Positions 1,288-56,412 of a stretch of DNA of 56,412 bases are shown one piece after another. Origin of the DNA: a virus (Duplodnaviria > Heunggongvirae > Uroviricota > Caudoviricetes); the IMG/VR virus record IMGVR_UViG_2718218136_000004; one strand, 5' to 3'. Below the pieces are notes generated by a model, which ran no database searches, was not told the DNA's origin, and worked only from the letters and a program-made list of their open reading frames with translations. Each line of letters begins with the position of its first letter. Positions within the stretch are counted from its first letter, which is position 1. The translations under genes were made by a program, and so were the position numbers.

Positions 1288-3759
1288 TTAAAAATCAGCC
1301 TGACTCGGGATCAGTTTTTGCCAGATAGCTGAAACGTATTTTGCCTGGTAACGAGCGTCATCAAGTGCATTATGGCGCTCACCTTCGAATGGAATAGCCG
1401 TTCTGGCATCGAAGTCTATGGCTTTCCCCAGCTCAACGATTGTGCGTACATCGCGATCGTTGTAGTAACGCCACGGGCAGGGGATCCCCTGCCGTTCGTA
1501 TGAACGGCGCAAAATCGTGTTGTCGAAGTTGGCTCCATTTCCCCAGACCTGAACAAAAAATTCACCGGAGTTTTCGTCGATAAATTCCCGCAATTGTAAC
1601 AGTGCATCATCTAACGGGATTTCATCGGTCATAATGGCAGATTGCGCTTCGCGTGATTGCTTAAGCCACCATTTAATGGTGTCCCGATCAATGACTCCGC
1701 CAGCAGTTTCCAGATCGATAGTCTTACTAAATTCCGGTCCCATATCTCCGGTTTGCGGATCGAAAAATATTGCACCTATTGAGATGATCGGGGCATCAGG
1801 ATTTTTTCCCATGGTTTCAAGGTCGATCATTAGATGGTCACACGTTCTGCTGGTGGATGTGATTTCTTGATGACCGTTCACCTTAATTGAGTGAGCTGCC
1901 GTCTCGCCAGTTTCATTATCGCTATCGTGATGCCGATTGCCGCCAGTGTTCTCCTTGTGTGGATGTTCAGCGCCCTCCATTTCCTCCGGATCATCTTCCT
2001 GAACTTCAACCTGATACTCTTCATCGAATGTTTCCTGGTATGTTGCGTCGCCCATCACCGCGCCACAATCAGGGCAGTTGCCGCCGCCGGTCTGACCGCA
2101 GGCGGTGCAGACTTTTTCCACTTCCTGTTGCGCCACTGGTTCAGGCTGTTTCGTTTCTGGCTCGTTTTGTAACGCATTTGGGCTGTTTTGTTCCGCTTTT
2201 TGGTAGTTCCGTTCCGATTCATGCTGGTTCTGGTTTACAGAATCGCGGGTCTGGATCCCCTTAACCCATTTCGGATCATTCGGGTCGCTAATCCCTGCAA
2301 CAAATTCTCCGCGAGAGGCAGCAAGCAACTTATCGGCGTCAGGCTGGCTGATATTGGCTGCCTGCATAATTTTGTTTACTTCGTCAGCGGTAACTTTTAC
2401 CGGCCCTGGTTGTGCGGTCGTGTCAGATGCACCAGTATTTTGTTGTGAACCTGAGTATGTACCGTTTTTGCGGGCGAAATATTCTTCTTTCGTGATTTCA
2501 GTAGCCCCGGCAGCCAGTGCCTTATCCAGACCAGAAAGTTTGTTTGCGCGACCGTATTTTTCGCCATCCTTGTCGGTGAAGAGGAAGTAGAACGGCCCCT
2601 CACGCTCTACAGATGGTTCGACTTCCACTTTGCATTCGGTTTTTTCGTTGTCCGGAATTGCCGTTTCCACTGCATCAGTTTCTGGTACTGGCGACGAGAG
2701 AGTATCAGTTGCGCTCTGATTTCTTCCTTCATCTTCAAACACGCCCTTTGTAGTCAGGTATTCAGTAATGTATTTGTTCAGTGCCACAGGGTCTTTGTGA
2801 ATGTCGATCGGACGTTCACGGACAAGGCCAAAAATAGTCCGGCGGTCGTAGCGAAGGGCATCAGGCTGTTTGCGCATTGATGCCGAGATACGCTTCCAGT
2901 CTTCGCGGTCGTTGTCGATAACTTCATTTTTTGCCCAGCGATGGATGCTGCCGTCAATGTTTCCGGCATCCACATCACCAGGCCAGAGAGCGTAGGCCAG
3001 TTCGTCATCCAGTGTTTTCCATGTCTGCTTGTATTCGCGATGAATGGCAGCAATGACCAGGCTGATTTTTCCTGTTGAATTTTCAGTGTGCTGTTGATTG
3101 GCTCTGGCGCGGGCGAGATCAACAACAGACGTGTATTTTCCGGCTTCCTTGCGTTCACCTTCGCGACGTTTTTTCCAGATGCGCATCTCTGCCTGAATTT
3201 CGGGCCATTTGGCACCAGGCTTACATTTATGCTTAACCCACCCGATGGCATGCAGCTTAAGCTCCGGATACATAGCGTTAACTTCTGGCATTTTCATCAA
3301 CGCTTCAACGATATGTCCGTCGAATGTTGCCATGTCTTCCTGCAACAATTCCTGCGCGCTAATCACCATATCAACGGTGATGTTTTCACATGTGTCGAAC
3401 TTAACCATGACAGCGTTCTGTACTTCAGGGGCCAGCTTGTCAAAAGTGACGTTCATCGGATCTGATTCAGTCTCAACCGGGACAAAGGAAGCAGACTCCT
3501 CATCCCAGCGGTTTTCCTGCATATATTCAGCATCCCAGGAATCGAGGGCAGGGCGGGGTATACCGGGTTTATCCTCGCAAACAAGAAATTTATAAGCGCA
3601 GTCCTGAGCAGCCGGATAATGTTCCAGGAATTGCCAGTGAAATTTTGCGCGGGCGCGACGTTCATCACCGGCTTCAATGGCAGTGGCTACAGCGACTGCA
3701 CCTTCTTCCTTTATTGCCTGTTCGTCCGGAATGGCGGCGCAAATAAAGACTTTACTCAT
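1288..3759 (-). CDS. Large prophage exonuclease, C-terminal DEDDh (DnaQ-like) 3'-5' exonuclease domain
   Basis: 823-aa ORF; C-terminal motifs IDLETMG (Exo I-like D-x-E) and HNALDDA (Exo III-like H-x4-D); position matches the exonuclease gene between int/xis and the dicB operon in Qin/Rac-type prophages. Confidence 0.7.
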   Translation of the reverse strand: MSKVFICAAIPDEQAIKEEGAVAVATAIEAGDERRARAKFHWQFLEHYPAAQDCAYKFLVCEDKPGIPRPALDSWDAEYMQENRWDEESASFVPVETESDPMNVTFDKLAPEVQNAVMVKFDTCENITVDMVISAQELLQEDMATFDGHIVEALMKMPEVNAMYPELKLHAIGWVKHKCKPGAKWPEIQAEMRIWKKRREGERKEAGKYTSVVDLARARANQQHTENSTGKISLVIAAIHREYKQTWKTLDDELAYALWPGDVDAGNIDGSIHRWAKNEVIDNDREDWKRISASMRKQPDALRYDRRTIFGLVRERPIDIHKDPVALNKYITEYLTTKGVFEDEGRNQSATDTLSSPVPETDAVETAIPDNEKTECKVEVEPSVEREGPFYFLFTDKDGEKYGRANKLSGLDKALAAGATEITKEEYFARKNGTYSGSQQNTGASDTTAQPGPVKVTADEVNKIMQAANISQPDADKLLAASRGEFVAGISDPNDPKWVKGIQTRDSVNQNQHESERNYQKAEQNSPNALQNEPETKQPEPVAQQEVEKVCTACGQTGGGNCPDCGAVMGDATYQETFDEEYQVEVQEDDPEEMEGAEHPHKENTGGNRHHDSDNETGETAAHSIKVNGHQEITSTSRTCDHLMIDLETMGKNPDAPIISIGAIFFDPQTGDMGPEFSKTIDLETAGGVIDRDTIKWWLKQSREAQSAIMTDEIPLDDALLQLREFIDENSGEFFVQVWGNGANFDNTILRRSYERQGIPCPWRYYNDRDVRTIVELGKAIDFDARTAIPFEGERHNALDDARYQAKYVSAIWQKLIPSQADF

Positions 3760-4402: not shown

Positions 4403-4455
4403 GGGCGGCAGAGCAGTCACGGAGTAAAACTGATACCGCCAAACGTCACCAGAAA
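4403..4455 (-). ncRNA. dicF: DicF small regulatory RNA (ftsZ-targeting sRNA of Qin-type prophages)
   Basis: Minus-strand sequence TTTCTGGTGACGTTTGGCGGTATCAGTTTTACTCCGTGACTGCTCTGCCGCCC followed by a T-run matches the recalled 53-nt DicF; located between ydfC-like and dicB as in the K-12 dicB operon. Confidence 0.65.
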
Positions 4456-8411: not shown

Positions 8412-8881
8412 GTGCACCGGCAACCATTCTTGATATGTGCTGTGGCAGTCGCATGTTCTGGTTCGATAAGAATGACGACCGGGCGATATTTAGCGATATC
8501 AGAAAGGAAGAGCACACATTGTGTGATGGACGACGCCTGATTATCAGTCCTGATCTGATAGCTGATTTTCGTGCACTACCATTTGCAGACGCATCTTTTT
8601 CGATGGTTATATTCGACCCTCCGCATCTTGAGCGTGTTGGTGATAACGCCTGGATGGGAAAGAAATATGGACGGCTGAATAAAGATACCTGGCGTGATGA
8701 TTTGCGGCAGGGATTTAAAGAAGCCTTTCGTGTGTTGCGTCCATCCGGCGTTCTGATTTTTAAATGGAATGAAACGCAAATACCTGTTCGCCAGATATTG
8801 ATACTGACCGACAGAAAACCTGTTATCGGTCAACGAACAGGAAAAAACGATAAAACCCACTGGATTATTTTTATGAAATAG
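8408..8881 (+). CDS. Orphan DNA methyltransferase (N6-adenine/N4-cytosine class, DPPH motif)
   Basis: 157-aa ORF with VIFDPPH catalytic-type motif and SAM-binding-like LDMCCGS segment; no adjacent restriction endonuclease. Confidence 0.65.
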   Translation: MSAPATILDMCCGSRMFWFDKNDDRAIFSDIRKEEHTLCDGRRLIISPDLIADFRALPFADASFSMVIFDPPHLERVGDNAWMGKKYGRLNKDTWRDDLRQGFKEAFRVLRPSGVLIFKWNETQIPVRQILILTDRKPVIGQRTGKNDKTHWIIFMK

Positions 8882-10961: not shown

Positions 10962-11172
10962 AAACGGTTTGCGGGAAAAGGAGAGTTAAGTAGAATTGCA
11001 GCGGGTGCTTGAGGCTATCTGTCTCAGGCATGAACACCAAAAGGCAGATAGAGAAAAGCCCCAGTTAACATTACGCGTCCGGCAAGACGCTTAACATTAA
11101 TCTGAGGCTCAATCTATGAACGGCAAATCTAGGTTAGCCTCTTACGTGCCGAAAGGCAAGGAGAAGCAGGCT

Positions 11173-11328
11173 ATGAAGCAGCAAAAGGCGATGTTAGTCG
11201 CCCTGATCGTCATCTGTATTACCGTCATTGTGACGGCACTGGTAACGAGGAAAGACCTCTGCGAGGTACGAATCCGAACCGGCCAGACGGAGGTCGCTGT
11301 CTTCACAGCTTACGAACCTGAGGAGTAA
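11173..11328 (+). CDS. hokD: Hok/Gef-family type I toxin, HokD (RelF)-like
   Basis: MKQQKAMLVALIVICITVIVTALVTRKDLCEVRIRTGQTEVAVFTAYEPEE is near-identical to recalled K-12 HokD; AAGGAG RBS; upstream in-frame extension to 11116. Confidence 0.8.
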   Translation: MKQQKAMLVALIVICITVIVTALVTRKDLCEVRIRTGQTEVAVFTAYEPEE

Positions 11329-14689: not shown

Positions 14690-14765
14690 GGCCCTTTAGC
14701 TCAGTGGTGAGAGCGAGCGACTCATAATCGCCAGGTCGCTGGTTCAAATCCAGCAAGGGCCACCA
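14690..14765 (+). tRNA. tRNA with CAU anticodon, tRNA-Ile2 (ileX/ileZ-like) or Met
   Basis: 76 nt; 7-bp acceptor stem GGCCCTT/AAGGGCC, D-arm with GG, anticodon loop CTCATAA, T-loop TTCAAAT, 3' CCA. Confidence 0.8.
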
Positions 14766-14766
14766 A

Positions 14767-14843
14767 CCGTCACCAGTTCATCAGGAAAGAGCGTCAACCC
14801 TTTAAGTTGAGTGTGCGAAGTTCGAGTCCCCGGTGGCGGTCCA
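14767..14843 (+). tRNA. tRNA-like sequence, non-canonical (possible pseudo-tRNA)
   Basis: Acceptor stem 7/7 paired (one G-U), D-stem GTTC/GAGC, anticodon stem TCAAC/GTTGA with loop CCTTTAA (C at position 33), T-loop TTCGAGT but T-stem does not pair. Confidence 0.3.
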
Positions 14844-14845
14844 GT

Positions 14846-14921
<76 letters not shown>

Positions 14922-14924
14922 TAT

Positions 14925-14999
<75 letters not shown>

Positions 15000-18538: not shown

Positions 18539-19021
18539 ATGTCAGGACCTCCGAAAACCCCGCCACGCCTGCATTTGATTCGAGGTAACCCCTCAAAGCG
18601 CCCCGTTAAAGACCACAAAAAAACCGCTAAAAAGGATGAAAAAGGTCTTCCTAAAATTCCGCAGCATTTAGGGGCTCAGGGGAAGTACTGGTTCAGGCGA
18701 ATGGCGGAAGAGCTGAATGCGGAAGGGATCATTTCTCAGCTTGATGCGCGTGCGCTCGAGCTGCTGGTGGAAGCCTACACCGAATATCGGCATCACTGCG
18801 AAACACTCGATGTTGAGGGGTATACCTACCGCACGGAAACGCAGAGCGGTGATGTACTGATTAAGGCGCACCCCGCGGCGGCAATGAAAGCGGATGCCTG
18901 GAAGCGGATCCGGGCAATGCTTGCAGAGTTTGGTATGTCACCGGCAAGCCGGGCTAAAGTAAATATCGCCGGACCGGATGATGTTGATCCGCTGGCGGAG
19001 CTTTTAAAAGCGAGAGACTGA
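18539..19021 (+). CDS. Terminase small subunit (P27 family)
   Basis: 160-aa ORF immediately upstream of and overlapping terL; similar architecture to the insert-encoded TerS. Confidence 0.75.
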   Translation: MSGPPKTPPRLHLIRGNPSKRPVKDHKKTAKKDEKGLPKIPQHLGAQGKYWFRRMAEELNAEGIISQLDARALELLVEAYTEYRHHCETLDVEGYTYRTETQSGDVLIKAHPAAAMKADAWKRIRAMLAEFGMSPASRAKVNIAGPDDVDPLAELLKARD

Positions 19022-20048
19022 TGGCAAAAGTGGCTGACGGGATCCGCTACGCCGAACGTGTTGTTGCAGGAGAAATTGTTGCTGGCGAATTTGTCCGCCT
19101 GGCCTGCCAGCGTTTTCTTGATGATCTGAAGTACGGCGAAGAGCGGGGGATTTATTTCAGTGAACCCCGTGCGCAGCACATCCTGAATTTCTACAAATTT
19201 GTGCCTCATGTAAAAGGGGCGCTGGCAGGCCAGCCCATTGAGTTGATGGACTGGCATGTATTTATCCTCATTAATATTTTTGGTTTTGTCATTCCGCTGG
19301 TCAATGAAGAGACCGGGGAAGTTGTCATGCGCAGCGATGGCAGCGGACGTCCGGTGATGGTGCGCCGGTTCCGGACGGCGTACAACGAAGTCGCCCGTAA
19401 AAACGCAAAATCAACTCTGTCATCGGGTATCGGCCTGTATATGACGGGGGCAGATGGTGAAGGCGGAGCTGAGGTGTATTCAGCCGCAACCACGCGTGAC
19501 CAGGCCAGAATCGTGTTTGAAGACGCCAAAAATATGGTCAGAAAAGCCCGGTCGACACTCGGGCGGTTGTTTGATTTCAACAAGCTGGCGATTTACCAGG
19601 AGCAGAGCGCATCAAAATTTGAACCGCTTTCTTCGGATGCAAACAACCTGGATGGTCTGAACATCCACTGCGCCATTATTGATGAGCTGCATGCACATAA
19701 AACCCGTGACGTGTGGGACGTTCTGGAAACGGCAACCGGTGCCCGTCTGCAGTCCCTTTTATTTGGTATCACCACGGCAGGGTTTAACAAGGAAGGGATT
19801 TGTTACGAGCAGCGTGATTACGCCATCAAGGTATTGCGTGGCTATAACAGCGACGTGGAGGGCGCGGTAAAAGACGACTCCTACTTTGCGATTATTTACA
19901 CCCTCGATGAGGGAGATGATCCGTTTGATGAAACGGTCTGGCAGAAAGCGAATCCTGGCCTGGGCATCTGTAAACGCTGGGATGATCTGCGTCGTCTGGC
20001 GAAAAAAGCGAAAGAACAGGTCTCTGCGCGGGTGAATTTTTTTACCAA
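19021..20048 (+). CDS. Terminase large subunit, 5' portion (ATPase domain), interrupted by insertion at 20042-20048
   Basis: N-terminal 342 codons align with the insert-encoded TerL up to ...ARVNFFTK; ORF then continues in frame into insert sequence and the integrase gene. Confidence 0.85.
20042..20048. repeat. attL crossover core (TTACCAA)
   Basis: Identical 7-bp core at 35490-35496; flanking sequence partially conserved (TT[T/C]TTACCAA). Confidence 0.5.
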
Positions 20049-20178
20049 GAAAGTAACATCACGCCGTAACAACAGTGCGACCTGTCCTGATTTTTTTAGT
20101 AACCAAATGAAAGAAAAAGTTTTTTTTCTTGTTCGTCGTTTTTGTTTTTTCTGGAAGGTTCTGGCTGTTTTCATCATT

Positions 20179-20200
20179 TGTGTATTGCACTGTGTATTGC
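20179..20200. repeat. Tandem TGTGTATTGC repeats near attL, candidate integrase arm-type binding sites
   Basis: TGTGTATTGCACTGTGTATTGC just upstream of int; near-identical GTGTATTGCGCTGTGTATTGC near attR. Confidence 0.45.
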
Positions 20201-20220
20201 AAAAACGGGTTATAAATCAC

Positions 20221-21444
20221 ATGGCGCTAAACAAACTGAGCGATAAAAAACTTCGTTCCCTGCTTGGACGCAGGAGTGAGAGGCAGGAAACCATCGCTGA
20301 TGGTAACGGGCTTTCGGTACGGGTCAGTAAATACGGATGTGTTAGTTTTGTTTTCTTTTACAGACTGGCGGGAAGGGGAACCGCGCCCATCTGGCTGACA
20401 CTTGGAAAATATCCTGATCTGAGTCTCAAATCAGCGAGAGAGATGCGCGATCAGTGTCGAACCTGGCTTGCGGAGGGCAGAGATCCACGGATTCAGATAA
20501 AAATTGAACGGGAAGCCACCTTGCAACCTGTTACCGTTCGTGAGGCACTTGAATACTGGCTTGATAATTATGCAATGGATAAGCGTAGGGGAGCAGAACA
20601 TATCAGGCAGTGCTTTGGTAAACATATTTATCCGGTGATTGGTCATGTACCACTTAGTGATTGCTCTATATCTATGTGGATCAAGTGTTTTGACAAAATA
20701 AAAAAAGTAGCACCTGTACAGGCCGGAGCTTTGTTGCGTATATCAAAACAGGCGCTTAAATTTTGTAGGGTAAGAAAATACGCGATTAGTCATGAAATTG
20801 ATGATCTTGAGGTCTGTGATGTGGGAAAAAAGTCTGCGCGAAGAAGCAGGGTTTTAACAGATGATGAAATCAGAGATTTATGGCGAAGTATTAATACTGA
20901 TTATGACAATCACGAATTATCATATGAAAACCGAATTATTTTACGTTTCCTGGTAGTTTTTGGTTGTCGACTGTCAGAAGTATTACTGTCGTCCTGGGTA
21001 GAGTGGGATTTTGATAAGAAATTATGGCGCGTTCCCGCTGATCATAGCAAAAATGGCAGGGAAATAATCAGACCGATTCCTGATGGCATGTTTAACTGGT
21101 TAGTTACGTTAAAAAAAATAACAGGTAACAAAGAAAATGTGATTGGGTTTGATATGCGTCAGTGTACGGCAAGCGTAACTATCGGTAAGACATGGAAAAG
21201 GATGAAACACTCGGAGAAATGGACGGCGCATGATATGCGAAGAGTGTTTGCCACAAAACTAAGTGATCATGGTTTTGAACATAATGTGGTTGAACAGTTG
21301 CTTGGGCACACATTAGGCGGTGTTGCCGGGGTTTATAACAGAAGCCAGTATATGGACAGAAAAAAAGAAGCTATGAACTGGTGGTACGACTATCTGAATA
21401 AGCAAATTAGTGGTGACAGTAATGATTCAAATAGTTACGCGTGA
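20221..21444 (+). CDS. int: P4-like tyrosine integrase of the satellite
   Basis: MALNKLSDKKLRSLLG... N-terminus typical of P4-family integrases; catalytic context FGCRLSEV, HDMRRVFAT, GVYNRSQY. Confidence 0.85.
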   Translation: MALNKLSDKKLRSLLGRRSERQETIADGNGLSVRVSKYGCVSFVFFYRLAGRGTAPIWLTLGKYPDLSLKSAREMRDQCRTWLAEGRDPRIQIKIEREATLQPVTVREALEYWLDNYAMDKRRGAEHIRQCFGKHIYPVIGHVPLSDCSISMWIKCFDKIKKVAPVQAGALLRISKQALKFCRVRKYAISHEIDDLEVCDVGKKSARRSRVLTDDEIRDLWRSINTDYDNHELSYENRIILRFLVVFGCRLSEVLLSSWVEWDFDKKLWRVPADHSKNGREIIRPIPDGMFNWLVTLKKITGNKENVIGFDMRQCTASVTIGKTWKRMKHSEKWTAHDMRRVFATKLSDHGFEHNVVEQLLGHTLGGVAGVYNRSQYMDRKKEAMNWWYDYLNKQISGDSNDSNSYA

Positions 21445-22621: not shown

Positions 22622-23064
22622 CCACACGCGGTGTTGATTATACGGTACATCGTGTTGACCGGGAAGCTACCCACCAGCAAGGCAAAATCTTCTGCTAAAA
22701 AATGACATATGACCAGTCGTCCGGAAAGCATGAAATTTTACAAAAATGGAAAATGAAGATTTTTATTGTGCTGGTGGGTAAAAACAAAAAGCGCCCCGTT
22801 ACCGGAGCGCCCTTGCGAACAATTAACCTACTGCGCAAAAAATGAATCTGTGCGGGGGGATTATATCAACCGTGGTCGAAATGACCATAGTTGCAGGATA
22901 ACAGGCAAAACAAAGGCCACCCGCTACGGTGGCCCCTTGACACAAGCTACACGTTATCCCCAACGCATGAGCATAACCAACAATGCCACATTTACGGCTG
23001 GTGGGCAAATCCTGAGCTGTTCTGTAATTACAGAAACTACGGCATTGTCGCGGTTAGGTTATGA

Positions 23065-23217
23065 TCAACTTTTTTTCAACTCTATATCGCAAGCACGCCG
23101 TAATATATCGCCTTCATTGCTTCCGCAAAGATTCTTTTTCTCGAAGCATGATTTTAAGATAAAGGCGGCGACAATTAGAACAATCGCACAGAGTGCACAA
23201 TTTTTAAGTTTTGGCAT
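23065..23217 (-). CDS. Small hydrophobic peptide (50 aa)
   Basis: [28 protein letters not shown]... with AGGAG RBS 7 nt upstream; downstream of an RHH-like gene on the same strand. Confidence 0.4.
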
Positions 23218-23271
23218 CTTTTACTCCTATGGTTGCCGCCGTGATTCCTCACACCACGGCGCTGGTGATGG

Positions 23272-23451
23272 TTATTCCTGCTCTTTGGCCTTGCGACGCT
23301 GGCGGTATTCAACTTCTCGCTTTAATGCTGCTGTTACAAACTGCCCTGTACTTTCACCAGGCATTTTTACCGCCTCAACATTGTTCATAACTTCATGCGG
23401 AACCCTTGCCGCAACTGTTTGTGATTTTGCGTTTACTGCTTTTGTTGCCAT
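23272..23451 (-). CDS. Ribbon-helix-helix-like small DNA-binding protein
   Basis: 59 aa; ...[17 protein letters not shown]...[16 protein letters not shown] fits an RHH strand-helix-helix pattern; adjacent to palindromic operators. Confidence 0.45.
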
Positions 23452-23501
23452 GTTGTGTACCCCTTACAAAAAACAAATGCAGTATGCAGGAAAAAAAATA
23501 A

Positions 23502-23553
23502 GTGTTCAACACTTGACGTGTTTAACACTAGGGCTTAAATTGGTGTTCAACAC
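23502..23553. promoter_or_regulatory. Satellite operator region: three GTGTT(C/T)AACAC palindromes between divergent operons
   Basis: Palindromes at 23502-23512, 23518-23528, 23543-23553. Confidence 0.45.
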
Positions 23554-23650
23554 CTTGCTGATGCAAGGTGCAGAAACGACGAAACCCGGCAGTGCGCTAA
23601 CACTAACCGGGCTTCTAACCACCAACGATAGAAAGCGTATCGAGGTAGCT

Positions 23651-24190
23651 ATGCTAAATCATACCACACACCCGCAAGGGCGGGACTCGCACAACCTGAA
23701 TAAACCCGATGTAAAAAACCTGTTGATCGCCACTGCCAGCCAGGGCTATGATTTACCCGCACCAGCAAAATCTGGTGCCGGGATTGGCGTCCTGGTATTT
23801 AACGAAGCGCACAACACGCGCCCTGCGTGTTTTTTTGTGCCGGATAGTCACACCTTATCAATGGTGGGCTGTATGGGGGCGGAGCAATCCGCGCCGGGTT
23901 CTTCGTTAACCGGTTACGCCAACCCTGTACAGTCCACCGCCAGCGAAATTGGCGTTTCCTGCGGTGGGTTTATTAAACCTAACGAAGAGGCTGCCAACAT
24001 GGCTACTATCCCTACCCTTGTACATTCCCAAACTGCCTTTATCTGGCGCTTTATCATCTTTGGCGCGTCAGAGTCCCAAATCATCCACGTCACCGCCTGG
24101 ACGGAACGCGAAGCGCGTAACCATTGCCCGTCAGGTTGTGTCGCTGTATTCGCCGCCCGTATTCGTCAGGGGGTGCGCCATGTGCAATAA
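23651..24190 (+). CDS. Hypothetical protein (first gene of satellite rightward operon)
   Basis: GAGG RBS before ATG at 23651; stop overlaps next start; amino-acid composition not strongly protein-like. Confidence 0.3.
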
Positions 24191-24425
24191 CACCCGTCCG
24201 GACGCAGCCGCCGAAGCCATCAAAACGCTGATGCACGCGCTGATTGATATTTCATGCACGGTAGCAACCGCAGAAAAACACATTACCAGAGAGACGGAAT
24301 ATACAGGGGCGATAATCCCGCATTCGCTGGCTTACGCACAGCTTACCGCTGATATGGCGCTGAATGAGGCTAAAGCCATCCTGATTGCTGATTGTGAAAA
24401 TGGCGGGGGCGATTATGCGAAATAA
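24180..24425 (+). CDS. Hypothetical protein
   Basis: 81-aa [28 protein letters not shown]..., start overlaps upstream stop. Confidence 0.4.
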
Positions 24426-24633
24426 ACATGATATTGAAGACCTGGCATTTGAAGCCCTGCACTCTGCGAAAAAAATCAGGGAAGTCGTCAATATGTGGAT
24501 GAACAGCCTTAGCACCGATAAATCCGATAGCAGAGAAGAAATTCTTATTTCTTTGTTGTTAGACCTGGCAAATACACAGGTTTCTCTGACATCTGATATT
24601 GAGCTCGCCGCTAAAAAGCTGCCTCTGGAGTAA
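24412..24633 (+). CDS. Hypothetical protein
   Basis: 73-aa [28 protein letters not shown]..., start overlaps upstream stop. Confidence 0.4.
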   Translation: MMRNKHDIEDLAFEALHSAKKIREVVNMWMNSLSTDKSDSREEILISLLLDLANTQVSLTSDIELAAKKLPLE

Positions 24634-24639
24634 AAAAAC

Positions 24640-24954
24640 ATGAAAAAGAAAAATTCTGGCTTTACTGCCAGCGGTCACGCTCGGCCTGAAATCCGCCCCG
24701 GTGATATTTTCCGGGATAAATACGGCAGCACGATAACGATTAAAACCGTCGATGATTTTCGTGTGACCTATATCCGCGAAGGTTATGCGCATCCCTGCGT
24801 GTCGTCACATATGCGCTTTGACAGGGAGTTCACCCTGGTAAGCAAAGCACCACCAGCAGAATTAAGCGACATCGACAGAATCATGCGCGTTACAGGAATG
24901 GAACGCATTAAGGCAGTACGTGAAATTATTCGTGAACGGGGAAAGGCAAAATGA
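24640..24954 (+). CDS. Hypothetical protein
   Basis: 104-aa ORF overlapping the start of the replication gene. Confidence 0.45.
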   Translation: MKKKNSGFTASGHARPEIRPGDIFRDKYGSTITIKTVDDFRVTYIREGYAHPCVSSHMRFDREFTLVSKAPPAELSDIDRIMRVTGMERIKAVREIIRERGKAK

Positions 24955-27077
24955 AGCGCGCACCAAACTTAAAGCACCAGCCAGCCGACAAAATGACGGA
25001 GGTTATCATCTTTGCGGGTAGTGATGCGTGGAGCCATGCGAAAGAGTGGCAGGAATGGGCAGGTAAGCATATTGCCGCCGACAATGTGCCGCCTGTCGTT
25101 CTGTCAGATGAACACCTGAAAGATATTACCGGTTATCAAATTATTGATGATAGCCGTCAGTGTGTGCGTATTTACCGCGCAGGGCACATCACTGAACGTA
25201 GCCTCACACAGATCGTCACGTTGCTGGCTGTGGCTGGCGTGAAGACCGTATACGAATACGCGGGGATAACTGACACCAGCCCGGCGGATTTATCCGACCA
25301 GTTGCCTCGCCTCAAAGACGAATACGAGCGCGGGGAAAGTCTGGTGTTGCCCTTAAAGAAAAAAATCACAGAAAGCCCGGGTGATGATGAATTAAAGCCC
25401 CGCGTTGAAAGCCGCGCCGATGGTGTTTTCTGGGTAACGCCAAAAGTGGATAAGCAGTCAGGCGAAATTATCCGGCCTGAAACGTGGTTATGCTCCCCGC
25501 TTGAGCTACTGGGAACGGGGACAATCGGCAAAGAGCATTACCGCGTGATGCGCTGGAAAAAGCCAGCAAACCATGAAGTCATCACGATGGCGGTTCCGTG
25601 CGGTGGCATTGGCGACCGTGACGGCTGGCGGCTGCTGAAAGACCACGGACTGAACGTGACAACCAACGGTAAATACAGGGCTATCCTGGCTGACTGGATG
25701 CAGTTAAGCGGAAACCATGAGGAATGGCAGTTAAGCACAACAACGGGCTGGCATTTTGGCGCGTACATCATGCCGGACGGTTCGGTCATTGGTGATTGCG
25801 AAAAGCCAGTCCTGTTTACCGGAAAAACGGCTGCCGTTAATGGTTATTCCGTGGCAGGAACGGCGGAGGGCTGGCGCGACAGTGTGGCGCGACTGGCTGG
25901 TGGTAATCCGTCCATGATGCTGGGTGTGGCGGTATCGCTATCCGCACCATTAATCGGGCTGGTGGGTGCTGACGGCTTCGGGGTACATCTTTTCGAACAG
26001 TCATCGGCAGGTAAGACCACAACGCAGAACATCGCATCAAGTTTATGGGGAGAGCCGGACGCGCAGCGGCTGACCTGGTACGGCACAGCGTTAGGTATCG
26101 CCAACGAAGCAGAGGCACACAATGACGGGCTTTTACCCCTGGATGAAATAGGCCAGGCCGGAAACGCGCGGGAGGTGTCCACGTCAGCCTATACGCTGTT
26201 TAACGGTTCGGGGAAATTACAGGGGGCGAAGGACGGCGGCAACAGGGAGATCAAACACTGGCGCACGGTGGCAATCAGCACCGGAGAAATGGACGTTGAG
26301 ACATTCCTCAAAACGGAGGGGATAAAAGTCAAAGTGGGGCAGCTTGTCCGCCTGCTTAACGTTCCGATGGAAAAAGCCACGCAATTTCACGAATACAGCA
26401 CCGGAAAGGCGCACGCAGACGCGTTAAAGGATGCCTGGACAGAAAATCACGGGGCGGCGGGTCGTGAGTGGGTTAAATGGCTGGCAGAACACCAGCAGGA
26501 GGCAAAGGACACGGTAAGGACATGCCGTGAGCGGTGGCGCAACCTGATACCGGAGAGCTACGGCGAACAGGTTCACCGTGTGGGGGAGCGATTTGCCATA
26601 CTGGAGGCCGCGCTTGTGCTTTCAGGTCATGTTACTGGCTGGGATGAGCAGGAATGCCGCGATGCCATACAGCATAATTTTAATGCCTGGGTGAAGGAGT
26701 TCGGCACGGGTAACAGGGAATTTAAACAGATGGTTGAACAGGCAGAAGCTTTTTTAGCGTCGTTCGGATTCAGCAGATACCTTCCGTGGCCCAATACCGA
26801 CGAGCGTGATTTACCGATTAAAGAACTTGCCGGATACAGAAAGGGGAGTATCAGAAACGAAGATGACGAGTTCCGTTTTTACACGTTCCCGCATGTATTT
26901 GAGGGTGAGATAGCACAGGGATTTAATCCGTCTCACTTTGCCCGCGCGTTGAGTGCTGCCGGAATGCTGGAAGCGGGTAACGATCGCCGTTACAAGAAAA
27001 AGGCGCTCGGCAAAATTGGGGGGAAGCAGCATGTTTTTTACGTGCTGATGTTCCAGCCAGAAAGCGAAGAAGATTAA
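24951..27077 (+). CDS. Satellite replication initiator, primase/helicase-like P-loop NTPase (DUF927-like)
   Basis: 708-aa ORF with Walker A-like SSAGKTTTQN; immediately upstream of an iteron/AT-rich origin and an SSB gene. Confidence 0.6.
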   Translation: MKRAPNLKHQPADKMTEVIIFAGSDAWSHAKEWQEWAGKHIAADNVPPVVLSDEHLKDITGYQIIDDSRQCVRIYRAGHITERSLTQIVTLLAVAGVKTVYEYAGITDTSPADLSDQLPRLKDEYERGESLVLPLKKKITESPGDDELKPRVESRADGVFWVTPKVDKQSGEIIRPETWLCSPLELLGTGTIGKEHYRVMRWKKPANHEVITMAVPCGGIGDRDGWRLLKDHGLNVTTNGKYRAILADWMQLSGNHEEWQLSTTTGWHFGAYIMPDGSVIGDCEKPVLFTGKTAAVNGYSVAGTAEGWRDSVARLAGGNPSMMLGVAVSLSAPLIGLVGADGFGVHLFEQSSAGKTTTQNIASSLWGEPDAQRLTWYGTALGIANEAEAHNDGLLPLDEIGQAGNAREVSTSAYTLFNGSGKLQGAKDGGNREIKHWRTVAISTGEMDVETFLKTEGIKVKVGQLVRLLNVPMEKATQFHEYSTGKAHADALKDAWTENHGAAGREWVKWLAEHQQEAKDTVRTCRERWRNLIPESYGEQVHRVGERFAILEAALVLSGHVTGWDEQECRDAIQHNFNAWVKEFGTGNREFKQMVEQAEAFLASFGFSRYLPWPNTDERDLPIKELAGYRKGSIRNEDDEFRFYTFPHVFEGEIAQGFNPSHFARALSAAGMLEAGNDRRYKKKALGKIGGKQHVFYVLMFQPESEED

Positions 27078-35414: not shown

Positions 35415-35489
35415 TCGATGATTTATAAAGACTGTTTTTTCATGTTAACTGATTGATATACAGGTGATTTTAAAAAACTTGAAATATTC

Positions 35490-35496
35490 TTACCAA
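35490..35496. repeat. attR crossover core (TTACCAA)
   Basis: Direct repeat of 20042-20048. Confidence 0.5.
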
Positions 35497-36226
35497 ACAC
35501 ATGAATGTGTGGGTAACAGCAGAGTCTGCCTGGATGGACATGATTAAGTGGGAGAAGTGCGAATACATTGCCCCGCGACATGAGCTGAAAACGTATCCCA
35601 TGTGGGTCGGCGTTGACCTTGCTCATAAGATTGATATCTGTGCGGCGGCAAAACTCTGGCGAACGGATAACGGGCATGTTCATGCCGATTTTAAATTCTG
35701 GCTCCCGGAAGGACGGCTGGAACGATGCTCGCGGCAGCAGGCAGAACTTTACCGGAAGTGGGCGGAGATGGATAAGCTGATTCTGACGGATGGTGATGTT
35801 ATCGATCATGCTCAGATAAAAAGTGACTTACTGGAATGGATTGGTGGTGAAAACCTCAGGGAACTGGGATTTGACCCGTGGAGCGCGATGCAGTTCAGCC
35901 TGGCACTGGCTGAAGAAGGGATACCGCTGGTGGAGGTTCCGCAGACGGTTCGCAATCTGTCAGAGGCCATGAAGGAAACGGAATCACTGGTCTATGCCGG
36001 ACGTTTCCATCACAGCAATCATCCGGTCATGAACTGGATGATGTCTAACGTTACGGTAAAACCGGACAAAAACGACAATATCTTCCCGAATAAATCCACG
36101 CTGGAAGCCAAAATCGACGGCCCTGTTGCGATGTTTACAGCAATGAGCCGGATGCTGGTCAATGGTGGTGAACCGGAGCCGGATCTGTCTGAACATCTGG
36201 TCAGCGTGGGCATCCGCTCGCTTTAA
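35490..36226 (+). CDS. Terminase large subunit, 3' portion (nuclease domain), continuation of the gene interrupted at 20048
   Basis: Translation ...[14 protein letters not shown]... is co-linear with the insert TerL segment ...TKRFNIWCQGATPW...; downstream motifs also conserved. Confidence 0.85.
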
Positions 36227-36237
36227 CCGAGGTCATT

Positions 36238-52432: not shown

Positions 52433-55400
52433 ATGGCAGTAAAAATTTCAGGTGTACTGAAAGACGGCACAGGAAAACCGGTACAGAACTGCACAATCCA
52501 GCTGAAAGCAAAACGTAACAGTACCACGGTGGTGGTGAACACGCTGGCATCTGAAAATCCGGATGAAGCCGGGCGTTACAGTATGGACGTTGAGTACGGT
52601 CAGTACAGCGTTATTCTGTTGGTGGAAGGATTCCCGCCGTCACATGCCGGGACCATCACAGTGTATGAAGATTCCCGACCCGGTACGCTGAATGATTTTC
52701 TCGGTGCCATGACGGAGGATGATGCCCGTCCGGAGGCACTGCGCCGTTTTGAGCTGATGGTGGAAGAGGTGGCGCGTAACGCGTCCGTGGTGGCACAGAA
52801 CACGGCAGCCGCGAAGAAGTCAGCCAGTGATGCCAGCACATCAGCCCGTGAGGCGGCAACCCATGCGACTGATGCTGCAGGCTCAGCACGCGCAGCCAGC
52901 ACGTCAGCCGGACAGGCCGCGTCGTCGGCTCAGTCAGCGACTTCCAGCGCAGGAACGGCATCAGCAAAAGCCTCTGAGGCATCAAAAAGTGCTGCCGCTG
53001 CAGAGTCCTCAAAAAGCGCGGCGGCCACCAGTGCCGGTGCGGCGAAAACGTCAGAAACGAATGCGGCAGCGTCACAACAATCAGCAGCCACTTCTGCATC
53101 CACCGCGACCACGAAAGCGTCAGAAGCAGCCACTTCAGCACGGGATGCGGCGGCCTCAAAAGAGGCGGCAAAATCATCAGAAACGAACGCATCATCAAGC
53201 GCCAGTAGTGCCGCTTCCTCGGCAACGGCGGCAGGAAATTCCGCGAAGGCGGCAAAGACGTCTGAGACAAACGCTAAGTTCTCTGAAACGGCAGCGGAAC
53301 AGAGTGCCTCAGCTGCGGCAGGCTCAAAAACAGCGGCTGCATCATCTGCCAGTGCCGCGTCAACAAGTGCCGGGCAGGCCTCAGCCAGTGCCACCGCCGC
53401 CGGAAAATCGGCAGAAAGCGCCGCATCGTCTGCTTCAACAGCCACAACGAAGGCTGGCGAAGCCACTGAACAGGCCAGCGCAGCAGCGAGGTCTGCTTCC
53501 GCAGCGAAGACATCCGAGACGAACGCGAAAGCGTCGGAAACCAGCGCAGAATCCTCAAAAACGGCTGCCGCATCGTCCGCCAGTTCGGCGGCGTCATCGG
53601 CATCATCGGCGTCTGCTTCAAAAGATGAGGCGACCAGACAAGCGTCCGCAGCGAAGGGCAGCGCCACGACAGCATCCACGAAGGCGACAGAGGCAGCTGG
53701 CAGTGCGACGGCGGCAGCACAGAGCAAAAGTACGGCGGAATCTGCAGCAACGCGCGCCGAGACAGCGGCAAAACGGGCAGAGGATATTGCATCCGCCGTG
53801 GCGCTTGAGGATGCGAGCACGACGAAAAAGGGGATAGTACAGCTCAGCAGCGCGACCAACAGCACGTCTGAAACGCTGGCGGCAACGCCAAAGGCAGTAA
53901 AAGCAGCCTATGACAATGCAGAGAAACGTCTGCAGAAAGACCAGAACGGCGCTGATATACCCGATAAGGGACGCTTCCTGAACAACATTAACGCGGTCAG
54001 TAAAACAGACTTTGCTGATAAGCGTGGTATGCGTTATGTGCGGGTTAACGCTCCTGCAGGTGCAACATCTGGAAAATATTATCCTGTTGTTGTTATGCGT
54101 TCTGCTGGCTCAGTAAGCGAACTGGCATCAAGGGTCATTATCACCACGGCAACGCGAACCGCAGGCGATCCGATGAATAACTGCGAGTTTAACGGATTTG
54201 TTATGCCTGGTGGCTGGACTGACAGGGGGCGTTATGCTTATGGAATGTTCTGGCAATATCAAAACAATGAACGAGCCATCCACTCAATAATGATGAGTAA
54301 TAAGGGCGATGATTTGCGCTCTGTGTTCTATGTTGATGGCGCTGCTTTCCCTGTTTTTGCGTTTATCGAAGATGGCCTGTCAATATCCGCACCTGGTGCT
54401 GATCTCGTTGTTGATGATACGACCTATAAGTTTGGGGCAACAAATCCGGCGACTGAATGTATCGCGGCGGACGTTATCCTTGATTTTAAGAGTGGGCGTG
54501 GTTTTTATGAGTCCCATTCGTTAATCGTTAACGATAACTTGTCGTGCAAAAAACTTTTTGCCACAGACGAAATTGTAGCGCGTGGTGGTAATCAGATTCG
54601 AATGATAGGTGGGGAGTATGGTGCATTATGGCGTAATGATGGCGCTAAAACTTACCTGCTGCTTACCAATCAAGGTGATGTTTATGGTGGCTGGAATACA
54701 TTAAGACCGTTTGCTATTGATAACGCAACCGGCGAACTGGTTATTGGAACCAAACTGTCCGCAAGTCTGAACGGTAATGCATTAACAGCAACAAAGCTGC
54801 AAACGCCAAGACTGGTTTCTGGTGTTGAGTTTGATGGTTCCAAAGATATTACTTTAACCGCCGCGCATGTGGCTGCTTTTGCCAGAAGGGCAACGGATAC
54901 ATATGCCGATGCGGATGGTGGCGTTCCCTGGAATGCCGAATCAGGCACTTATAATGTCACCCGCTCTGGCGACAGCTATATTCTGGTTAACTTCTATACC
55001 GGAGTCGGAAGTTGCCGGACCCTGCAGATGAAGGCGCATTACAGAAATGGTGGTCTGTTCTACCGTTCTTCAAGAGATGGCTATGGTTTTGAGGAAGACT
55101 GGGCAGAAGTTTATACCTCGAAAAATCTTCCACCAGAAAGCTACCCAGTCGGCGCACCAATCCCGTGGCCATCAGATACCGTTCCGTCTGGTTATGCCCT
55201 GATGCAGGGGCAGACTTTTGACAAATCTGCCTACCCGAAACTTGCAGCCGCTTATCCGTCAGGCGTGATCCCTGATATGCGTGGCTGGACGATTAAGGGC
55301 AAACCTGCCAGTGGTCGGGCCGTATTGTCTCAGGAACAGGACGGCATTAAATCGCATACCCACAGCGCCAGCGCATCCAGTACGGATTTGGGGACGAAAA

Positions 55401-55831: not shown

Positions 55832-56412
55832 TGGCATTCAGAATGAGTGAACAACCACGGACCATAAAAATTTATAATCTGCTGGCCGGAACTAATGAAT
55901 TTATTGGTGAAGGTGACGCATATATTCCGCCTCATACCGGTCTGCCTGCAGACAGTACCGATATTGCACCGCCAGATATTCCGGCTGGCTTTGTGGCTGT
56001 TTTCAACAGTGATGAGGCATCGTGGAATCTCGTTGAAGATCATCGGGGTAAAACGGTTTATGACGTGGCATCAGGGGACGCGTTATTTATTTCTGAACTC
56101 GGTCCGTTACCGGAAAATGTTACCTGGTTGTCGCCGGAAGGGGAATATCAGAAGTGGAACGGTACAGCCTGGGTGAAAGATGCAGAAGCAGAAAAACTGT
56201 TCCGGATCCGGGAGGCGGAAGAAACAAAAAACAGCCTGATGCAGGCAGCGAATGAGCATATTGCGCCACTTCAGGATGCTGTAGATCTGGAAATCGCAAC
56301 GGAGGAAGAAAACTCGTTGCTGGAAGCCTGGAAAAAGTATCGGGTGTTGCTGAACCGTGTTAATACAACAACTGCACCGGATATTGAATGGCCAGTAGCA
56401 CCTATAGGGTAA
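55831..56412 (+). CDS. tfa: Tail fibre assembly protein
   Basis: [39 protein letters not shown]... matches lambda Tfa; stop TAA at 56410-56412. Confidence 0.85.

Follow-up and report, generated by a model that had tools for sequence, protein, structure and literature searches.

The four small open reading frames (ORFs) that precede the replication gene of a satellite element at positions 23651-24954 of the window (the whole 56,412-nt stretch of DNA analyzed here) probably constitute, together with the sequences immediately upstream, a P4-type operon for RNA-based immunity and control of replication in a capsid-forming, helper-embedded PICI. The first of these ORFs contains two RNA genes, one for an isrK/seqA-like RNA and one for a C4/CI-like antisense RNA, followed by an Icd/Kil-like coding region, and the other three encode conserved small proteins.

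The element and its insertion site

The PGAP annotation used was that of the E. coli strain 181.1 record NZ_CP059907.1, which is identical to the window. The genes of the element are arranged in the order int, two AlpA-type HTH genes, a BRO-N gene and a divergent YlcI/YnfO gene; then ORF1 to ORF4, followed by the genes for DUF927, SSB and PerC; and finally capsid, protease, portal, head-completion, HNH, TerS and TerL genes. The terL gene of a lambdoid prophage is split by the element, its N-terminal part being located at 19021-20067 and its C-terminal part at 35486-36229, and the att core TTACCAA is present at both element ends (20042-48 and 35490-96). Since its own capsid and packaging genes are all enclosed by the two terL halves, the element is classed as a capsid-forming, helper-embedded PICI, with the prophage terL as its insertion site. 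An int-alpA-primase set, capsid and packaging genes of its own and insertion in a prophage late gene thus occur together.

This organization resembles that of the helper-embedded PICIs and cf-PICIs (Tommasini 2023; Alqurainy et al. 2023), with respect to the int-alpA / Bro / replication / late-gene layout, the insertion in a prophage Terminase_1 gene, and the possession of capsid, protease, portal and TerS/TerL genes. The PICI class, including its Terminase_1 insertion site, has already been described by Tommasini, Mageeney and Williams 2023 (PMC10111431), and the occurrence of C4 and isrK Rfam matches in PICIs, within the "Bro zone", has been noted in the same work (PMC10111431). Both the module and its presence in PICIs are already in the literature. 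Unlike the present analysis, the two 2023 studies took Phage_ASH as a protein domain, and they did not dissect the RNA targets, the nested ORFs, the in-frame cassette loss or the YlcI operators. Some of the details are unreported, namely the in-frame loss of the RNA cassette, the covariation of YlcI with its candidate operators and the evolution of the Ash segment as RNA rather than as protein.

Organization of the four ORFs

The protein-coding features of the operon are as follows.

23651-24190, plus strand: ORF1, an eta-like composite ORF of 179 codons (ATG 23651, TAA 24188-24190)
23999-24190, plus strand: nested Icd/Kil-like ORF of 63 aa, in frame with ORF1 (NF033153, 59.7 bits versus a cutoff of 25)
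24180-24425, plus strand: ORF2, 81 aa, whose ATG at 24180 overlaps the end of ORF1
24415-24633, plus strand: ORF3, 72 aa, whose ATG at 24415 overlaps the end of ORF2
24640-24954, plus strand: ORF4, 104 aa, a DUF4222 protein whose TGA overlaps the primase ATG at 24951
24951-27077, plus strand: DUF927 primase/helicase gene, 708 aa (PF06048, E 5.8e-46)

The four abutting ORFs are all encoded on the plus strand, as described in the first-pass annotation, which had nevertheless placed the start of ORF3 at 24412. This triplet is ATT, which is not a start codon, and the correct start is therefore ATG 24415, the position at which PGAP likewise begins the gene. The proposal that the ORFs form a single overlapping operon leading into the replication gene is borne out by the stop/start overlaps, which extend through to the primase ATG at 24951, where the primase start and the ORF4 stop share ATGA. 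The stop of the nested Icd/Kil-like ORF overlaps the start of ORF2. The location had been likened to that in P4-like elements, and it indeed corresponds to the P4 left operon, the site of the helper derepressor epsilon. ORF1 occupies only the 3' end (179 codons) of an open frame of 474 codons (22766-24190), and the PGAP version of the gene is a 246-aa "Icd-like" CDS (23450-24190).

None of the four ORFs had been recognized in the first-pass annotation, which suggested profile and structure-prediction searches. The profile searches left ORF2 without a Pfam match and ORF3 with only weak PHROG matches, but the other two ORFs were identified. ORF1 is the equivalent of P4 eta/kil (Pfam Phage_ASH and NCBIfam Icd-like) and contains the isrK and C4 RNA genes, while ORF4 belongs to the DUF4222 family.

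RNA genes and pairing sites within ORF1

The RNA features encoded within ORF1 are listed below; the pairing sites were identified by complementarity.

23723-23752, plus strand: internal promoter-like site TTGATC-18-TATGAT, in the position of P4 PLE
23759-23835, plus strand: isrK/seqA-like RNA (Rfam RF01394, 80 bits versus GA 50)
23784-90 and 23799-807, plus strand: upstream C4 targets in isrK, TTGGCGT and TTAACGAAG, respectively
23857-23944, plus strand: C4/CI-like antisense RNA (Rfam RF01695, 75.3 bits versus GA 45)
23899-909 and 23916-22, plus strand: C4 specificity elements, the hairpin-2 loop TTCTTCGTTAA and the joining segment ACGCCAA, respectively
23949-55 and 23980-89, plus strand: downstream (seqC-like) C4 targets, TTGGCGT and TAACGAAGAG, respectively

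The Rfam c4-a1b1 target model was also matched, with a score (44.5 bits) slightly below its GA of 46.7. The -10 hexamer of the internal promoter-like site ends 6 nt ahead of isrK model position 1, and the site is kept in the relative L015. A terminator scan located an intrinsic terminator in isrK (23813-31, followed by a T run), and the C4 RNA has a CCA-like 3' end, CACCGCCA. In an RNAalifold analysis of 26 diverse copies, the C4 fold comprised 27 consensus pairs, 10 of which showed compensatory changes.

The C4 loop TTCTTCGTTAA forms 9 Watson-Crick base pairs with each of its two targets, TTAACGAAG and TAACGAAGAG, and the joining segment forms 7 with each TTGGCGT target. Duplexes of this length at both targets were obtained in none of 5000 shuffles. 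The TAACGAAGAG target overlaps the Shine-Dalgarno sequence of the kil-like ORF (ATG 23999). A match between the loop and a site adjoining the first ATG was found in 14 of 14 hand-checked loci, which include satellites, Stx phages, a P1-like phage and APSE-7, and in these loci the joining segment likewise co-varies with its targets. Among 94 unique loci, taken from our own locus set and from an IMG/VR pattern scan, the loop is hypervariable (37 distinct sequences), and in all 94 it matches the site beside the first ATG. The constituents of a C4 immunity module, i.e., an RNA gene with the family fold, an upstream target RNA, paired two-element sites and a coupled Icd/Kil-like leader, are all found in the window.

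Composite nature of ORF1

The match to Pfam Phage_ASH (PF10554) covers aa 36-126 of ORF1 and coincides with both RNA genes. When this segment was compared with those of three relatives, the differences at codon positions 1/2/3 were 23/23/24, 14/18/21 and 36/34/30, versus 3/4/10, 10/9/21 and 8/5/19 in the kil part. Since it displays no codon-position bias, the middle of ORF1 behaves as RNA, and the odd amino-acid composition of the ORF can be attributed to a central peptide that would be a by-product of reading through the RNA genes. The earlier suspicion that ORF1 may not be real on account of this composition thus holds for its central ~100 codons, which are the DNA of the two RNA genes. It does not extend to the start and the first 18 codons, which are conserved, or to the last 63 codons, which are Icd/Kil-like and show a third-position excess. 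The 5' part of the nested kil-like ORF is C-rich and G-poor (GC skew -0.35).

The start of ORF1 consists of a Shine-Dalgarno sequence, GAGG (23643-46), followed by ATG 23651. In most close relatives of the satellite the RNA cassette is wholly absent, so that the RNA layer is dispensable; these relatives have no Rfam match at the gathering score, and in three of them (L003, L005 and L012) no RNA match was detected even at E 0.01. In relatives that lack the cassette, the Shine-Dalgarno sequence, the ATG and the first 18 codons are as in ORF1 and are fused directly to ...YIWRF, and the same N-terminus (M(L/R) plus 16 residues) is common to the 65-68-aa Icd-like genes of the relatives. A different in-frame fusion, in which MVAVNH is joined to IPHLVHTQTAF, is found in L007, such that two different in-frame deletions of the cassette are represented among the relatives. 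As judged from these comparisons, the RNA cassette sits in frame within the leader gene. The start of ORF1 is probably a genuine translation start, because the Icd-like genes of the cassette-less relatives use the same Shine-Dalgarno sequence, ATG and first codons. As in P4 eta/kil, a longer in-frame ORF begins upstream of the internal promoter-like site (ATG 23651 versus 23723-23752) and remains open to 24190.

It is unlikely that only the 63-codon kil-like ORF is translated and that the longer ORF1, from 23651, is an accidental frame over structured RNA with no role. The lack of codon-position bias in the Ash segment would be compatible with such an accident, as would the pseudogene status given by PGAP to the "ash" portion in both of the closest relatives and the many loci whose frame across the RNAs either is closed or does not match that of the first ORF. 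Among 16 Icd-type loci, the frame of the ORF is open upstream in 4, the +1 frame is open in 10 and neither is open in 2; most of the antirepressor-type loci lack an open frame. Weighing against it, the same Shine-Dalgarno sequence, ATG and 18 codons provide the sole possible start of the Icd-like gene in the cassette-less relatives, and the reading frame has been kept through two independent deletions. The long frame is, moreover, open in the window, L014, L015 and P4, and P4 eta, which has identical geometry, is presented as a translated, immunity-insensitive read-through product in the account of P4 given in PMC10111431 (citing Forti 1999). In-frame read-through is not universally required, since 10 of the 16 Icd-type loci are out of frame with kil and the frame of the P1-like phage is closed. 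The reading preferred here is that the start codon and the Icd/Kil domain of ORF1 would be functional.

That ORF1 is a conventional "Ash family" regulatory protein with incidental Rfam matches is scarcely credible, for although the ORF gives matches to Pfam PF10554 and to several "transcriptional regulator" families of PHROG, the matched segment is exactly that of the two RNA genes, contains compensatory base-pair changes in place of a codon-position bias, has stops in every frame in some loci (e.g., L009 and L020), and is equivalent to the P4 segment that yields the immunity RNA CI (PMC10111431; PMC4825925).

The candidate upstream promoter and the YlcI/YnfO gene

Three types of feature were identified upstream of ORF1.

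23272-23451, minus strand: divergent YlcI/YnfO-family gene, 59 aa (NF041551, 59.7 bits versus a cutoff of 30)
23502-12, 23518-28 and 23543-53, unstranded: three exact palindromes, GTGTTYAACAC, which bracket the upstream promoter
23513-23541, plus strand: upstream promoter-like site TTGACG-17-TAAATT, in the position of P4 PLL

No further exact copy of GTGTTYAACAC is present in the 56 kb, in which a single match with one mismatch occurs at 52532, and the observed count was reached in none of 100 shuffles. The promoter-like site is kept in relatives in which the Icd-like gene directly follows. Other YlcI alleles are accompanied by different repeats, GTGGCTGACAC or GTGTGTTTCA, at the same offsets, and across the relatives a change of operator type goes with a change in the N-terminal segment of YlcI. 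The YlcI/YnfO protein is a candidate repressor of the upstream promoter and probably binds DNA, although family/profile and PDB sequence searches revealed no match to a DNA-binding family. The literature searched assigns no function to either YlcI/YnfO or DUF4222.

A weak match to SymR on the minus strand between the palindromes and ORF1 (23578-23650; 32.8 bits) falls under the GA of 61 and is considered to be due to chance.

ORF2, ORF3 and DUF4222

ORF2, ORF3 and DUF4222 are real, conserved small proteins. The ORF2 family includes 175 homologue clusters, almost all from E. coli, in none of which a Pfam domain was detected. Its differences at codon positions 1/2/3 (8/12/26 and 12/11/37) reveal a third-position excess. 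The structure prediction that had been proposed for these ORFs gave, for ORF2, an AF2 model of a two-helix hairpin (helices 9-37 and 39-73, pLDDT 80), and a fold search of this hairpin against viral models returned nothing better than E 0.8. ORF3 differs little from its close relative and has a small family, with 9 representatives at E<=1e-3 among 1.84 billion; in related loci, 6 of its 7 members are located immediately upstream of DUF4222. ORF4 was assigned to DUF4222 (PF13973) with 67.2 bits versus a gathering score of 27, and PF13973 is present in all 157 of its homologue clusters. It forms an SH3/Tudor/KOW-like barrel followed by two C-terminal helices, and its codon-position differences (4/4/13) again show a third-position excess. 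PDB sequence searches with ORF2, ORF3, ORF4 and YlcI yielded nothing meaningful.

In the relatives, DUF4222 precedes and overlaps replication genes of three types, encoding DUF927, a RepA-family helicase and a DNA primase family, respectively. On the basis of position and fold class, we take ORF2, ORF3 and DUF4222 to be accessory factors of the replication module, whose expression would require an open switch. By position, DUF4222 corresponds to P4 Cnr, without being homologous to it, and ORF2 corresponds to P4 epsilon. A relationship of DUF4222/ORF4 to Cnr (DUF5375) was considered and rejected, the hhalign probability being 0.04%.

It is quite unlikely that ORF2 to ORF4 are instead helper-interaction genes, e.g., an epsilon-like derepressor, as might be suggested by their position, which is that of P4 epsilon, orf151 and cnr. 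One short motif, IPH..Y...D..LNE.KA, aligns between ORF2 and epsilon, but ORF2 was rejected as a distant epsilon: the 23-residue motif attained a probability of 8.8% (hhalign, single sequence), which fell to just 1.6% in the profile-profile comparison, and no member of the ORF2 family matched the Pfam epsilon model, Derepression (PF25738). Furthermore, the DUF4222 and ORF3 families accompany the replication gene whatever its initiator class.

The suggestion of the first-pass annotation that the position may carry variable anti-phage cargo is very improbable. Defense hotspots are known in satellites (PMC9122126), and the relatives carry from 1 to 4 small ORFs between icd and DUF4222. Against this, PADLOC-DB 2.0 gave no match at E<=0.01 for ORF1 to ORF4 and their neighbors, the proteins are of 72-104 aa and lack enzymatic or sensor domains, and the same three conserved families occupy fixed positions in related satellites and are translationally coupled to the primase.

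Proposed mechanism

The analysis demonstrates the RNA families, the pairing with its covariation, the nesting of the ORFs, the coding signatures and the coupling by overlap; for the RNA immunity and replication-control operon favored here, promoter activity, RNA processing and termination are extrapolated from matches to consensus sequences and from the P4 and P1 systems. The short isrK/seqA-like RNA would be produced from a constitutive promoter within ORF1 (23723-23752), and read-through from this promoter would generate a precursor, to be processed to the stable C4/CI-like antisense RNA (23857-23944). The two single-stranded C4 elements would then pair with the nascent transcript, at both the isrK sites and the downstream sites, and the distal downstream pairing would cover the Shine-Dalgarno sequence of the 63-codon Icd/Kil-like ORF (ATG 23999). 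In the presence of C4, kil would remain untranslated, and Rho would probably terminate the C-rich RNA. The CCA-like 3' end of C4 and the C-rich, G-poor leader are indirect signs of RNase P processing of the precursor and of Rho-dependent premature termination. Termination of the untranslated RNA would keep ORF2, ORF3, DUF4222 and the primase off, all of them being coupled by stop/start overlaps, and this state would constitute the immunity of the satellite.

The switch could be opened by two routes. In the first, transcription would start at the operator-flanked promoter (23513-23541), which is probably repressed by YlcI/YnfO, and ribosomes entering at ATG 23651 would traverse the RNA cassette, rendering the transcript insensitive to C4, as with P4 eta. 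In the second, isrK would titrate C4.

Comparison with P4, P1/P7 and Gifsy-1

In P4 (NC_001609), isrK is located at 8615-8692 and C4 at 8420-8507. The old P4 "cI ORF" corresponds to Phage_ASH plus Icd-like, its frame extended upstream is eta, and it is followed by epsilon, orf151, orf106/cnr and alpha. P4 Kil (MATTLTPSHPEF..., 65 aa) is similar in N-terminus and size to the 63-aa protein of the window. According to the treatment of P4 in PMC10111431 (citing Forti 1999), a constitutive promoter is situated inside eta; its transcript is terminated via CI/seqA interactions and processed to CI; Kil is translated upon read-through; and translation of full-length Eta, which occurs solely from the upstream promoter, prevents termination.

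The window shares with P4 an isrK/seqA-like RNA and a C4/CI RNA in identical order, the presence of targets on either side of the antisense RNA, a Kil/Icd ORF of ~63-65 codons nested in the frame of a longer one whose start precedes the internal promoter, and small overlapping ORFs followed by a primase gene. In contrast, ORF2, ORF3 and ORF4 are not homologous to epsilon, orf151 and cnr, and the primase belongs to the DUF927 type. Candidate YlcI/YnfO operators lie on either side of the upstream promoter, whereas the upstream promoter of P4 follows vis/orf88, and the isrK-C4 spacing is 21 nt, compared to ~107 nt in P4. The element itself is a capsid-forming PICI, unlike P4, a P2-dependent sid/psu/delta satellite.

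The resemblance to the immI region of P1/P7 (c4-icd-ant) extends to the two specificity elements of the C4 RNA, to the duplication of their targets, with the distal one covering the ribosome-binding site of icd, and to the coupling of downstream genes to an Icd-like leader ORF (the locus compared was L010). The output of P1/P7 immI is an antirepressor, whereas here it is a replication operon, and the long frame across the RNAs is uninterrupted in the window but not in the P1-like phage. As in the isrK-orf45-anrP region of Gifsy-1 from Salmonella (PMC4825925), isrK has its own terminator, and read-through reaches a short leader ORF that is coupled to the gene after it. The same paper describes IsrK as structurally homologous to seqA and demonstrates the coupling through the leader ORF in Gifsy-1 (PMC4825925). 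In the window, however, the leader is Icd-like and the output is the primase, versus the AnrP/AntQ cascade of Gifsy-1.

Implications for PICI regulation and annotation

Explicit target sites point to a P4-style antisense-RNA lock that would hold the primase of a capsid-forming PICI embedded in the terminase gene of its helper. Experiments on this arrangement can make use of the loop-target pairs, both start codons and the YlcI operators, and ORF2, ORF3 and DUF4222 are flagged as conserved satellite genes that would be gated by the switch. The analysis also corrects a widespread annotation error, in that "Ash family protein" and over-long "Icd-like" CDSs overlie an RNA immunity gene.

We propose more tentatively that the replication operons of E. 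coli PICIs may be controlled by a modular two-layer switch, which as such is undescribed, with a YlcI/YnfO repressor layer, an optional isrK/C4 cassette and DUF4222 as adaptor. The first layer would consist of a YlcI/YnfO-family repressor acting at allele-specific operators on the operon promoter. Gram-negative PICIs are reported as AlpA-induced, and the proposal, if true, would supply a repressor for elements hitherto thought to be controlled by AlpA only. The second layer would be an optional P4-type cassette inside the icd-like leader, the precise in-frame loss of which leaves the operon working. DUF4222, with its Tudor/KOW-like fold and its position before three unrelated initiator classes, could then serve as a general adaptor of satellite replication to the host transcription/replication machinery.

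A scan of genome contigs with the 63-aa Kil protein recovered two loci only; homologues of the isrK-C4 segment were present in 2,587 of 5,426 complete E. coli genomes.

Putative repressor alleles and the flanking minus strand

Upstream of the cassette-bearing operon, the divergent YlcI/YnfO gene and the repeats beside it (23272-23553 in the window) were compared with those of related loci (L004-L007, L013 and L015). Three YlcI/YnfO alleles were found, each accompanied by a distinct repeat sequence, with equal offsets from the promoter. This pairing of alleles and repeats suggests an allele-specific repressor-operator pair governing the PICI replication operon.

The following minus-strand features lie beyond this gene:
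23065-23217 (-), 50-residue hydrophobic ORF, directly downstream of the YlcI/YnfO gene
22937-22912 (-), second terminator
within 22787-22887 (-), strong promoter-like site, TGGTCA-16-TATAAT plus an extended TG (10 of 12 matches)
22814-22787 (-), intrinsic terminator, ∼40 nt after the promoter-like site

The 50-residue ORF, for which Pfam, NCBIfam, PHROGs and PADLOC returned no match, may share a transcript with ylcI and encode a small membrane peptide or a toxin. The promoter-like site and terminator at 22787-22887 would together yield a predicted sRNA-like transcript of ∼65–70 nt, which matched no Rfam family.

Distribution, loss and tandem occurrence of the isrK/C4 cassette

Homologues of the isrK-C4 segment were detected in 2,587 of 5,426 complete E. 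coli genomes, where its annotation is variable or absent. Annotations as “Ash family protein” (Pfam PF10554) fall on the DNA of the isrK/C4 RNAs, and the 246-residue “Icd-like” CDS predicted by PGAP (23450-24190) is over-extended. Most of the related satellites (L003-L007, L012 and L013, compared with window positions 23705-24037) lack the cassette, and among them the eta-type start is joined to the Icd domain by two different in-frame deletions. No second copy of the cassette was found among the Rfam matches in the window.

A lambdoid prophage of E. coli R8 (L016) carries two tandem isrK-C4 modules (2503-2691 and 3159-3347), which differ in their loop and target specificities. Each module precedes a separate gene, and a Rha-type regulator is encoded by at least one of the two.

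Satellite insertion and surrounding prophage

The prophage terL gene is interrupted at about codon 341 by the satellite of ∼15.4 kb; the terminase gene is likewise truncated, to the left of int, in the related loci L012 and L013. An 807-residue ORF joins the N-terminal part of TerL in frame to the satellite integrase, a fusion that is accidental.

20042-20048 and 35490-35496, att cores at the satellite ends
19021-21444, terL/integrase fusion ORF
4403-4454 (-), 11003-11178, 14690-14996 and 56174-56372, further Rfam matches in the surrounding prophage: DicF, sok (adjoining hokD), three tRNAs and IS009
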